Origin: Escherichia coli | GTDB lineage: Bacteria > Pseudomonadota > Gammaproteobacteria > Enterobacterales > Enterobacteriaceae | Reading direction: 5' to 3' (one strand) | Length of the DNA stretch: 64,000 nt | Assembly: GCF_003018235.1 (NCBI RefSeq) | Contig: NZ_CP027437.1 | In this document: one piece after another, positions 49,857 through 58,007 of the stretch | Layout: each line of letters begins with the position of its first letter | How positions within the stretch are numbered: the first letter of the stretch is position 1 | Made by a program: the position numbers and the translations under genes | The notes under the pieces: generated by a model | Databases searched by the model: none | What the model was told of the DNA's origin: nothing | Seen by the model: the letters and a program-made list of their open reading frames with translations, nothing else

Positions 49857-49900
49857 ATACGCACAGAATGTGATGCCAGCACTCTGTGCGTATGCTTTTA
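49857..49900. terminator. Bidirectional hairpin terminator between eamA and the PTS-islet regulator
   Basis: 12-bp stem catacgcacaga / tctgtgcgtatg followed by cttttat. Confidence 0.55.
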
Positions 49901-50596
49901 TCGCGGGAAAAAGTACTTTACCTGGAACTCGAAAATATTGCTGTAAAGTAACGAATAATCCAGCGGAATAGAGTTACTGTCCACAGCCTGGGTCTGAATT
50001 TTAAGTATGGGATCCCGTGGGCTGATCCGTAAAATACTGGCGATTTCTGGGGTAGGAAAAGTAGGGGAGAAAGTTTCAAAGGTGCCAATGATTTTGATCC
50101 CGCATTCGTTCTCAATATACGAAAATTTGGATTTTTGCATATGTGCTACGGTTAAATCAGGAAAACGTGCCACTGACATCCACGTTTCTTCTAATTGTGC
50201 TGCATTATCCTCAATGAATCGCAGTCTCTTTATGTAATAAACCTGCTCACCAGTCACTAAATTCAGCTCAGTCGCAATAGGGGGAGAAGCATCCTGCACT
50301 TCAAATTTCATAATCTGACTTCCTGCCTCCTTGCCGCTTTTATGCGCAATTTCACTGAAGCTGTTCATGTGATCAATGTGTGCAACAAAATTCTTTTTTT
50401 GAATATATGTTCCTGAACCATGCTTTCTATGAATAATTCCTTCGCCTTCCAGCAAGGATAATGCCTTACGCAGGGTATTACGCGAAACATTATAACGAAC
50501 AGCGAGTTCAGCTTCTGACGGCAACAAATCACCAACATGCCATGAATAGCCATTGATCTCGGATTTAAGTAAGCGGGCAATCTTTTGAAAAATCAC
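49898..50596 (-). CDS. GntR/HutC-family transcriptional regulator (probable repressor of the adjacent PTS operon)
   Basis: N-terminal winged HTH, C-terminal UTRA-like domain; GTG start with SD aaggtg; divergent from the PTS operon. Confidence 0.8.
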   Translation of the reverse strand: MIFQKIARLLKSEINGYSWHVGDLLPSEAELAVRYNVSRNTLRKALSLLEGEGIIHRKHGSGTYIQKKNFVAHIDHMNSFSEIAHKSGKEAGSQIMKFEVQDASPPIATELNLVTGEQVYYIKRLRFIEDNAAQLEETWMSVARFPDLTVAHMQKSKFSYIENECGIKIIGTFETFSPTFPTPEIASILRISPRDPILKIQTQAVDSNSIPLDYSLLYSNIFEFQVKYFFPR

Positions 50597-50794
50597 TTTT
50601 GCACCTTTTAAGAGCCATTGAAAACAAGGAGTTGAGTCCTGATTGGTTTATCGTATGGCCGAGTCGTTTAATTATTACCCTGATGTTGAACAACTTTATT
50701 GCTGTATTACTGTGATCAATGTACCAGGACGTATAGCTACTGCGGGATATGATATTTACACAATGTAATCTGTTATATACCAGTAAGGGAAAAT

Positions 50795-51106
50795 ATGAAA
50801 AAGATATTGTTAGTTTGCGCTGCGGGCATGTCAACCAGTATGCTGGTTAAACGTATGATTGATCATGCTAACGCTATTTCACTTGAAGTTAATATTTCCG
50901 CATTGGCGATTGCAGAGGCTAAAGGGAAAATTAAAAATAACGAAGTTGACGTTGTTTTACTTGGCCCGCAAGTTCGCTTTCAGAAACCAGAGATTGAAGC
51001 TGTTGCACAGGGGAAAATGCCTGTAGCTGTTATCGAGATGAAAGACTATGGCACCATGAACGGACAGGCAGTTCTTGAATTTGCGATGAAACTACTGCAA
51101 GAGTAA
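50795..51106 (+). CDS. PTS lactose/cellobiose-family EIIB
   Basis: MKKILLVCAAGMSTSMLV with phospho-acceptor Cys, 103 aa. Confidence 0.85.
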   Translation: MKKILLVCAAGMSTSMLVKRMIDHANAISLEVNISALAIAEAKGKIKNNEVDVVLLGPQVRFQKPEIEAVAQGKMPVAVIEMKDYGTMNGQAVLEFAMKLLQE

Positions 51107-51220
51107 GAATCTAATATTATTAAACTATTACCTGAACTAACTTTTCACACATCATAAAATGGATATGGCATACATGCTTTATTGGGATGTATAAATATCC
51201 AGAACAACACGTATAAAAAA

Positions 51221-52543
51221 ATGAGATTAATGACCTCATTCGAACGTGGAATGGAACGTTTTCTTGTTCCAGTTGCTATCAAGTTAAACTCACAAAAACA
51301 TGTTGCAGCGGTGAGAGATGGATTCGTTTTTACGTTTCCAATTATCATGGCAAGCTCATTAATTATATTAATAAACTTTGCCATATTATCGCCAGACGGC
51401 TTTATTGCCGGACTGCTGCATCTGAACAGCGTTTTTCCCAACCTTGAAAAAGCACAAGCTATTTTTACTCCGGTAATGAATGGCTCTGTAAATATCATGT
51501 CAATTATGATTGCTTTCCTGGTCGCCAGAAATATGGCGATTAGCTATGAGCAAGATGATCTTTTATGCGGATTAACGGCAATAGGCGCATTTTTTATTGT
51601 TTATACGCCATATCAGATGATAGATGGACAAGCATTCCTGACGACCAAATATCTCGGCGCACAGGGGTTGTTTGTTGCTGTTATCGTTGCATTAATCACC
51701 AGTGAAATATTTTGTCGCTTAGCTCGAAACCCAAAAATCACCATAACGATGCCGGCATCTGTACCTCCTGCGGTAGCGCGTTCATTTAAAGTTTTATTGC
51801 CAATATTTTTTGTCATGGTGTTCTTTTCCGCACTTAATTATTGCCTGACACTGATATCCCCGGCAGGATTAAACGATCTCATTTACACATTAATCCAGAC
51901 GCCGCTCAAACATATGGGAACGAATATCTTTGCGGTAATTATCCTGGGGGCTGTGGGTAATTTCCTGTGGGTGCTGGGGATCCACGGACCTAATACCACC
52001 TCGGCAATTCGAGAAACTGTTTTTTCTGAGGCTAATCTGGAGAATCTCTCCTGGGCCGCTCAACACGGCACTACCTGGGGCGCGCCATATCCGATTACCT
52101 GGACTTCTATTAATGATGCATTCGCCAACTGCGGCGGTTCAGGCATGACGTTGGGATTATTGTTGGCTATTTTCATCGCTTCTAAGCGTGCGGAATACCG
52201 TGATCTGGCAAAAATGTCATTTATCCCCGGTATTTTCAATATCAATGAACCGATAATGTTCGGCCTTCCTATTGTACTTAACCCCATCATGATGGTGCCG
52301 TTTATTCTGGTTCCCATTGTTAACTGTGCCATTGGTTACTGCTTTGTTTCGATGGAAATTATTCCACCGGTTGCTTATGCCGTGCCCTGGACTACGCCCG
52401 GACCTTTAATTGCTTTCCTCGGAACCGGGGGAAACTGGCTGGCGTTACTGGTGGGTTTTTTATGTTTAGGTGTGGCGACAATGATCTATTTACCTTTTGT
52501 TATTGCAGCCAACAAGGTCAATAACATGACAACTAACGGATAA
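51221..52543 (+). CDS. PTS lactose/cellobiose-family EIIC permease
   Basis: About 440 aa polytopic membrane protein resembling ChbC; start approximate. Confidence 0.85.
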   Translation: MRLMTSFERGMERFLVPVAIKLNSQKHVAAVRDGFVFTFPIIMASSLIILINFAILSPDGFIAGLLHLNSVFPNLEKAQAIFTPVMNGSVNIMSIMIAFLVARNMAISYEQDDLLCGLTAIGAFFIVYTPYQMIDGQAFLTTKYLGAQGLFVAVIVALITSEIFCRLARNPKITITMPASVPPAVARSFKVLLPIFFVMVFFSALNYCLTLISPAGLNDLIYTLIQTPLKHMGTNIFAVIILGAVGNFLWVLGIHGPNTTSAIRETVFSEANLENLSWAAQHGTTWGAPYPITWTSINDAFANCGGSGMTLGLLLAIFIASKRAEYRDLAKMSFIPGIFNINEPIMFGLPIVLNPIMMVPFILVPIVNCAIGYCFVSMEIIPPVAYAVPWTTPGPLIAFLGTGGNWLALLVGFLCLGVATMIYLPFVIAANKVNNMTTNG

Positions 52544-52570
52544 TCCCATTTACACAGGAAGGAGATGTTG

Positions 52571-52882
52571 ATGTTTGCAGATGAAGAACTTGTTATGGAG
52601 TTACTGATCAACGCGGGACAGGCACGTTCTGATGCGATGGAAGCCATACGTTGTGCCGGGCAAAAAGACTGGCAGGGCGCAACTCAGCTAATGGCCAGTT
52701 CGGAATTAGCCTGTCTTCAGGCACATAAGATTCAGACCGCGTTAATTAGTCAGGATGAAGGTTGTGGCAAAATAGTAGTTAATTTAATTCTGGTTCATGC
52801 ACAGGATCATTTGATGAATGCAATATTATGCCAGGATTTAGCCAGGGAAATTATTTCATTAAGAAAAGAGCTCCATGCCTGA
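52571..52882 (+). CDS. PTS lactose/cellobiose-family EIIA
   Basis: About 103 aa helical protein with conserved His, like ChbA; start chosen by SD spacing. Confidence 0.8.
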   Translation: MFADEELVMELLINAGQARSDAMEAIRCAGQKDWQGATQLMASSELACLQAHKIQTALISQDEGCGKIVVNLILVHAQDHLMNAILCQDLAREIISLRKELHA

Positions 52883-52934
52883 TTTTTTCCTCCAGTGCGA
52901 TAGCTGGAGGAAATTATTACACTCTTAAGGATAA

Positions 52935-55985
<3,051 letters not shown>

Positions 55986-56041: not shown

Positions 56042-56260
56042 CTACATAGCGTGTTGATTATAATAGGGCACGCCGAGCGCATCCGACTTATCACTGCCAG
56101 TACCCATGTGATTTAAATCAAACGGTGGTTGTTCCTGCGATGGGGGAACAACCACGACATTGGCACAGGAAGTAACAACCTGCTGCGTGGTTTGTTCCGC
56201 AATGCCCTGCGTGGAAAAGAGAATAAACGCAGCTGCTATTGCGGATAAAAGTGGTTTCAT
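56042..56260 (-). CDS. marB: Periplasmic protein MarB
   Basis: 72-aa MKPLLSAIAAAFILFSTQGIAEQ... Confidence 0.9.
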   Translation of the reverse strand: MKPLLSAIAAAFILFSTQGIAEQTTQQVVTSCANVVVVPPSQEQPPFDLNHMGTGSDKSDALGVPYYNQHAM

Positions 56261-56291: not shown

Positions 56292-56675
56292 CTAGCTGTT
56301 GTAATGATTTAATGGATGTAAAAAGCGCGATTCGCCCTGCATATTGGTCATCCGGTATTTATGTGGCGGAACATCAAAGTAATTTTTGAAGGTTCGGGTC
56401 AGAGTTTGTTGCGACTCGAAGCCATATCGTTCTGCCAGATAGAGTATCGGCTCGTTACTTTCCTTCAGCTTTTGCGCGATTTCCGTCATCTTACGGCTGC
56501 GGATGTATTGGCCTAATGAATGACCGGTTTCTTTTTTAAACATCCGTTGCAGGTGCCATTTAGAGTAACCCGAACGCTCTGACACTTTCTCCAGTGACAG
56601 TGGCGATTCCAGGTTGTCCTCGATCCAGTCCAAAATGCTATGAATGGTAATAGCGTCAGTATTGCGTCTGGACAT
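56292..56675 (-). CDS. marA: AraC-family activator MarA (127 aa)
   Basis: [71 protein letters not shown]... Confidence 0.95.
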
Positions 56676-56695: not shown

Positions 56696-57130
56696 TTACG
56701 GCAGGACTTTCTTAAGCAAATGCTCAAGTGTTGCCACTTCGTCCGCCGTCAGGTTTTTTGTTAATTCTTGATGCAGGTCCTGGCCAACTAATTGATGGCA
56801 TTGTTCACATATTGCCGCGCCGCTGGTGGTAAGTTTTACCAGTACGCCGCGCTTGTCATTCGGGTTCGGCAACCTTTCCACCCAGCCTTTACAGACCAGG
56901 CGATCCAGCATACGGGTCAGCGCCCCCAGGTCGACCGATAACACTTTTTTCAGTTCAACCGGAGTAATACACGCCGCGCAGCGGATAGAGCAGAGCACCT
57001 TAAACTGTGCCGCGGTAATATCCAGCGGAGACAGATACTCGTTAAGCAGGCGATCTTTCTTCTGATTAACCATATGGATTAAGCGACCCAATGGAATAAT
57101 TTCATTGAACAGATCGCTGGTACTTTTCAC
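56696..57130 (-). CDS. marR: Repressor MarR (144 aa, GTG start) with G103S and Y137H relative to K-12
   Basis: [62 protein letters not shown]... Confidence 0.95.
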
Positions 57131-57341
57131 ATTAGTTGCCCTGGCAAGTAATTAGTTGCAGGGGATAATATTGCCCAGGCAAGTATAAGTCAAATGAATG
57201 AATTGACCGATGCCACGTTTTGCTAAATCGGTTCAAGTTTTGGTCAGTGCGATGCAAGGTTAGCTAAAGAGTGACACTTTATCCTTGTTTACCCCTTATA
57301 CTTTTCGCTGATAACCCAGATACACAGGATAACAACCACCA
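57131..57341 (-). promoter_or_regulatory. marO: marO: marRAB promoter (-35 TTGACT, -10 TATTAT), MarR sites I and II, marbox; divergent marC promoter
   Basis: MarR palindromes TTGCCctGGCAA (57136-57147) and TTGCCcaGGCAA (57171-57182); marbox atttagcaaaacgtggcatc (57209-57228, - strand). Confidence 0.85.
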
Positions 57342-58007
57342 ATGTTAGATTTATTTAAAGCAATTGGCCTGGGGCTGGTGGTGTTACTACCGTTAGCTAA
57401 CCCATTAACAACTGTCGCGTTATTTCTTGGCCTGGCAGGCAACATGAACAGTGCCGAACGTAATCGTCAGTCGTTGATGGCCTCGGTGTACGTCTTTGCC
57501 ATCATGATGGTGGCGTATTACGCCGGGCAATTGGTGATGGATACATTTGGCATTTCGATTCCCGGTCTGCGAATTGCAGGCGGCTTAATCGTCGCGTTTA
57601 TCGGTTTTCGGATGCTCTTTCCGCAACAGAAAGCGATTGATTCACCGGAGGCGAAAAGCAAGTCGGAAGAGCTGGAAGATGAACCCAGTGCCAATATTGC
57701 CTTTGTACCACTGGCAATGCCAAGTACCGCCGGTCCGGGAACCATTGCAATGATTATTAGCTCGGCGTCCACAGTGCGTCAGAGTTCAACCTTCGCTGAT
57801 TGGGTACTGATGGTTGCGCCGCCGCTGATCTTTTTCCTGGTGGCGGTTATTTTGTGGGGAAGTCTACGCAGCTCTGGCGCAATTATGCGGCTGGTGGGTA
57901 AGGGGGGCATTGAAGCGATCTCCCGTCTGATGGGATTCCTGCTGGTATGTATGGGTGTGCAGTTTATTATTAACGGCATCCTGGAAATCATTAAAACGTA
58001 CCATTAA
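57342..58007 (+). CDS. marC: Inner membrane protein MarC
   Basis: 221-aa [24 protein letters not shown]... Confidence 0.9.

Follow-up and report, generated by a model that had tools for sequence, protein, structure and literature searches.

The mar locus in the 64,000-nucleotide stretch of Escherichia coli DNA analysed here (contig NZ_CP027437.1; hereafter the window) encodes a MarR protein with serine at position 103 and histidine at position 137, where strain K-12 has glycine and tyrosine. The question is whether this protein is a weakened repressor of the kind listed among resistance determinants or simply an ordinary MarR. Our analysis points to the latter: the gene is very probably a normal marR of an E. 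coli strain other than K-12, encoding a functional wild-type repressor. Such a protein would act as a homodimer of the winged-helix type. Bound to sites I and II of marO, it would hold down marRAB and, by way of MarA, the AcrAB-TolC/Mar regulon until an inducer lifts the repression. Repression of marRAB at marO, with release by salicylate or by Cu2+ oxidation of Cys80, is the activity that we infer from the sequence. The G103S and Y137H polymorphisms are already well known; they are confirmed here, and it is K-12 that turns out to be the outlier.

The marR gene and its differences from K-12

The gene heads the series marR-marA-marB and is divergent from marC, with a marO region that contains two TTGCC-N3-GGCAA-type sites, a marbox and a sigma-70 promoter (Table 1). 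The plus-strand translation of the marR interval is full of stops, and the gene can be read only as the reverse complement. Its product matches the NCBIfam equivalog NF008565.1 (MarR) over residues 1-144 of 144 with 320.1 bits against a cutoff of 240, and carries the winged-helix domain PF01047 at residues 38-96 (66.6 bits). Crystal structures of E. coli MarR match it with E-values of 1e-84 to 1e-92. No frameshift, stop codon or insertion sequence is present in the window marR.

Table 1. Features of the mar locus and the adjoining glucosidase gene, in window coordinates.
Feature	Position	Strand	Remarks
6-phospho-beta-glucosidase (GH1), next to marB	54636-55985	+	deletion junction 55852-55864
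marB	56042..56260	-	72 aa; NCBIfam NF007508, 136.6 bits (cutoff 87)
marA	56292..56675	-	127 aa as in RefSeq; ORF extends to 56681; NCBIfam NF008564, 294.3 bits (cutoff 202)
marR (repressor of marRAB)	56696..57130	-	GTG start, 144 codons + TAA; from the ORF listing
MarR codon 137	56720..56722	-	CAT (His); K-12 TAT (Tyr); Y137H = TAT>CAT at window 56722
MarR codon 103	56822..56824	-	AGC (Ser); K-12 GGC (Gly); G103S = GGC>AGC at window 56824
marO / marC-marR intergenic region	57131..57341	-	211 nt; compared to K-12
MarR site II	57132-57150		string match, identical to K-12
MarR site I	57165-57185		contains -10 at 57165-57170; string match, identical to K-12
-35 hexamer	57188-57193		string match, identical to K-12
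marbox	57210-57229		string match, identical to K-12
marC	57342..58007	+	divergent from marR; NCBIfam NF008228, 376.6 bits (cutoff 162)

A PDB sequence search aligned the protein end to end with wild-type K-12 MarR (PDB 3VOE) and left exactly two differences, S103 for G103 and H137 for Y137, which is what the preliminary description had claimed; the nucleotide comparison with MG1655 (L001 3001-3435) bears it out. K-12 MarR (P27245; PDB 3VOE, 1JGS and 5H3R) has the same length, GTG start and marO core as the window, and the 142 of 144 residues held in common include C80 and the whole PF01047 region. At the DNA level the two genes differ by eight nucleotides, of which two are missense and lie 102 nt apart and six are synonymous (codons 62, 63, 64, 69, 70 and 120), a proportion expected under purifying selection on marR. 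Chance is not an issue for the residue differences, since orthologous genes are compared directly. Five of the six synonymous differences crowd into 25 nt (window 56921-56945, codons 62-70), the stretch in which the common K62R polymorphism also falls, and this cluster may mark a short recombined patch or a hotspot of mutation.

Sequencing or assembly error in the window can be excluded as the source of the differences. The marR DNA is 100% identical over its 435 nt to that of strain 1190, an independent complete genome whose MarR (WP_000843419.1, the species-typical allele) is identical as a protein and whose marC / marO / marR-marA-marB organisation is that of the window; moreover, both alleles are found among thousands of genomes. 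Strain GMF054, the best 20-kb match to the window in the collection, has the same gene order at only 99.2% identity, and its MarR (WP_000843422.1, K62R/G103S/Y137H) shares S103 and H137 with the window protein but has in addition K62R, which the window lacks.

The two residues were placed on an AlphaFold2 model of MarR built from a 15-sequence alignment (mean pLDDT 80.6), a monomer model that bears on secondary structure only. The model has the expected MarR architecture, with a beta-hairpin wing at 84-100 after helices 57-64 and 68-80. In this monomer, residue 103 comes second in helix 102-124 (alpha5), directly after the wing strand 92-100, and residue 137 lies inside the C-terminal helix 129-142. 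Both fall outside the Pfam DNA-binding core 38-96.

The operator and the other mar genes

The preliminary description had called marO intact, and for the core of the operator this holds: positions 113-210 of the 211-nt spacer, which cover the marbox, the -35 hexamer, site I with the -10 and site II, are those of K-12. The assignment of these elements follows the anatomy of marO reportedly described by Martin & Rosner 1995. The only differences from K-12 in the marC-marR spacer are three SNPs at 57243, 57247 and 57260, 14-31 nt upstream of the marbox. This is presumably the region where an accessory Fis site was described. A 31-mer containing the SNPs at 57243 and 57247 is common to 506 of 5,426 complete E. 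coli genomes, which makes the haplotype that of a lineage and not a private mutation.

MarA and MarC are identical to their K-12 counterparts. One extra T (56691) lengthens the spacer between marR and marA by 1 nt compared with K-12. In MarB, six residues are changed from K-12 (S5L, L12F, A17T, V20I, P27Q and H44Q), and the protein also departs from the MarB of strain 1190 at L12F and P27Q despite the identical marR. The effect of marB variants such as H44Q is described as not established (PMC8597741).

Another change that would derepress the locus was also considered. Comparison of the marO core, MarA and the marR reading frame with K-12 gave no sign of a disrupted repressor or operator across the mar locus; what remains are the upstream SNPs, the longer marR-marA spacer and the MarB substitutions, changes without known effect. 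In principle, any of these may affect mar expression without involving MarR.

Regions flanking the mar locus

A block of about 6 kb (window ~49898-55985) lies between eamA and marB; neither K-12 nor strain 1190, in which eamA directly follows marB, has it. Its genes encode a GntR regulator, PTS components IIB, IIC and IIA, a carbohydrate porin and a GH1 6-phospho-beta-glucosidase. For a 20-kb query that contains the block, coverage reaches 80% or more in about 2,511 genomes. Together with the eight nucleotide differences in marR and the six substitutions in MarB, the absence of this block from K-12 agrees with the earlier view of the strain as non-K-12.

Compared with its counterpart in strain GMF054, the glucosidase gene beside marB has lost 90 bp in frame, and the deletion is flanked by 13-nt direct repeats (GGGAAATGAAAAA). 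Thirty amino acids are missing as a result, among them the segment GYTPWG, presumably a motif conserved in GH1 enzymes, and the Pfam GH1 match is broken in two. The deletion junction occurs in only 5 of the 5,426 complete genomes. Judged from its sequence, the 6-phospho-beta-glucosidase is probably inactive in this strain.

A lambdoid prophage runs from window position 1 to beyond 24000 and adjoins ydfJ/ydfI (the Qin locus in K-12). The annotated features under its matches comprise a terminase, a portal, a ClpP-like prohead protease/capsid fusion, a tape measure protein, gpJ and a tail fibre, and its best matches show 99.3-99.5% identity.

Frequency of the alleles within E. coli

Allele frequencies were determined in 5,426 complete E. 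coli genomes, a collection biased to clinical and laboratory strains, with counts pooled over phylogroups. The queries were 31 nt long and centred on the variant base, and were run with megablast using a 28-nt exact seed, so that a match requires the allele. A 71-nt query around codon 103 had given 682 exact matches; that count is confounded by nearby synonymous SNPs, and the allele-specific 31-mers replaced it.

The S103 31-mer was found in 4,173 genomes and the G103 form of K-12 in 1,189. For position 137, an exact 64-nt segment with the histidine codon gave 4,179 records, and the K-12 31-mer with tyrosine gave 1,190 genomes. S103/H137 is thus the majority state of the species in this collection, at about 77%, with G103/Y137 at about 22%, and the almost equal numbers for positions 103 and 137 agree with their being completely linked. 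The matches listed for the K-12 allele include BL21(DE3), DH1, JM109, RP437, MC4100 and other laboratory derivatives, and G103/Y137 probably occurs in nature at less than 22%. Five of the marR matches in the collection sit on records classed as plasmid and not as chromosome.

Polarity and variability across species

Searching a one-genome-per-species collection with a pattern that covers both MarR operator sites gave 25 loci, and the residues at 103 and 137 were read from them by tblastn. S103/H137 is present in E. albertii (L003), E. whittamii (L019), Escherichia sp. E1V33 (L020) and the GTDB representative of E. coli (L008). Citrobacter amalonaticus has H103/H137 and C. sedlakii H103/Y137, and the more distant genera have aspartate or glutamate at 103 and leucine or tyrosine at 137. 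Since three other Escherichia species carry S103/H137, parsimony makes this pair the ancestral state of the genus, as read from these sequences, and the G103/Y137 of K-12 the derived one (S103G, H137Y). The preliminary description had spoken of natural polymorphisms common in clinical lineages; common they are, but the wording understates the case, as most E. coli carry the pair and so do three further species of Escherichia.

One of the loci retrieved (L006 3366-3797), deposited as "MAG: Caldithrix sp. CR04bin15", combines marO with a K-12-type marR (G103/Y137), and is probably an E. coli K-12 contamination of a metagenome-assembled genome.

The 15 enterobacterial MarR sequences of the alignment have a mean column identity of 94%, and columns 102, 103 and 137 are among the few without a majority residue. 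Position 103 is occupied by S, G, H, D or E and position 137 by H, Y or L; T101, G104, E136 and L138 are invariant.

Effect of the two residues on repression

The source usually cited for the neutrality of the substitutions is reportedly Oethinger et al. 1998. The preliminary description had spoken of the substitutions as generally regarded as neutral, and most of the primary literature sides with this. In one study marR-G103S/Y137H was unassociated with any level of levofloxacin resistance, with carriers at MICs of 0.016-0.25 ug/mL (PMC4317672); another supports neutrality by citing Oethinger et al. 1998 and that study (PMC11753663), a third treats the substitutions as without effect on resistance or repression (PMC8597741), and in a fourth the susceptible control strain ATCC 25922 carries both residues (PMC10782992). 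The pair is also the commonest MarR substitution in a set of Norwegian isolates (PMC7082582). The opposite is asserted in two papers, one claiming AcrAB-TolC overexpression induced by the substitutions (PMC7546912) and the other stating that ciprofloxacin/tetracycline resistance results from them (PMC11298459). In addition, the two residues are proposed, as speculation, to explain an 8-fold up-regulation of acrA in an ST410 isolate (PMC8976530), and the pair is listed under "AcrAB-TolC with MarR mutations" for B1 and D strains (PMC13203681). The passages of these four papers that concern the substitutions contain no isogenic test. The phrase "MarR mutations conferring resistance" stands in thirteen papers of the literature searched, and several genome reports use it as though it accounted for resistance. 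A variant model of the CARD resistance database is worded in the same way.

On the reading that this label implies, G103S and/or Y137H would weaken MarR and lead to partial derepression of marRAB, more AcrAB-TolC efflux and less susceptibility to ciprofloxacin and tetracycline. What speaks for it is the repeated label and the acrA up-regulation ascribed to the residues in the single ST410 isolate. The window allele does carry both G103S and Y137H relative to K-12, but it is not derived, enriched in resistant strains and absent from susceptible ones: it is found in about 77% of the 5,426 genomes as well as in three other Escherichia species, and a derepressing defect is not expected of an ancestral majority state. 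Susceptible isolates, including those with the low levofloxacin MICs and ATCC 25922, have the same residues, and positions 103 and 137 vary freely among enterobacterial MarR orthologues. We therefore regard derepression by these residues as highly improbable. The marR mutants with a genuine Mar phenotype (frameshifts, deletions and DNA-binding-domain substitutions, among them the A70E/A70T and delta97-107 variants of resistant isolates) concern the same gene and appear in the same tables of marR mutations (PMC8597741, PMC11753663), and they arise under drug selection and disrupt the winged-helix region or truncate the protein. Unlike them, the window allele is ancestral, with an intact frame and an unchanged DNA-binding region 38-96.

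A subtler effect would be that the residues tune MarR quantitatively, through dimer stability, operator affinity or sensitivity to salicylate or copper, so that the K-12 protein differs measurably from the window protein and neither is "resistant". Their placement in the monomer model is compatible with this, H137 being in the C-terminal helix and S103 where the DNA-binding wing meets helix alpha5. Alekshun and Levy are said to have described in 1999 the C-terminal substitutions V132M and L135F as MarR super-repressors, and the C-terminal helix could on that account modulate activity. The tight linkage of the derived K-12 changes (1,189 versus 1,190 genomes) could likewise reflect co-selection or shared descent, but clonal descent over 102 nt explains it fully, and the wide variation of both columns across genera also stands against tuning. 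The literature searched yielded no published phenotype that distinguishes S103/H137 from G103/Y137 MarR, and in the set of 36 isogenic marR mutants of Praski Alzrigat et al. 2017 (PMC5890708) positions 103 and 137 go unmentioned in the main text. Tuning thus appears unlikely; if it were true, parameters of the Mar response obtained with K-12 would not transfer exactly to clinical lineages.

An ordinary, functional MarR remains the reading that we prefer, and normal repressor activity is what the sequence, the frequency and polarity of the allele, the operator core, the identity of MarA and the literature together suggest. It would be the K-12, or phylogroup-A-type, allele that gained S103G and H137Y. 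Both positions are tolerant ones, 103 where helix alpha5 begins behind the wing and 137 in the C-terminal helix, and repression and baseline drug susceptibility would be expected to be unchanged.

Implications

"G103S/Y137H" appears in a description of this gene because K-12 is used as the reference, and to call the pair mutations or resistance determinants is an artefact of reference bias. Any pipeline that scores variants with K-12 as its reference will flag about three quarters of E. coli genomes in this way, and even E. albertii. Nearly all structural and biochemical work on MarR has used the G103/Y137 protein, which is a derived minority variant. The biological weight of the finding is small, as the marR in question is a normal one, and its practical value lies in annotation: the derived status of the K-12 residues is a clear reason to ignore resistance calls based on G103S/Y137H.
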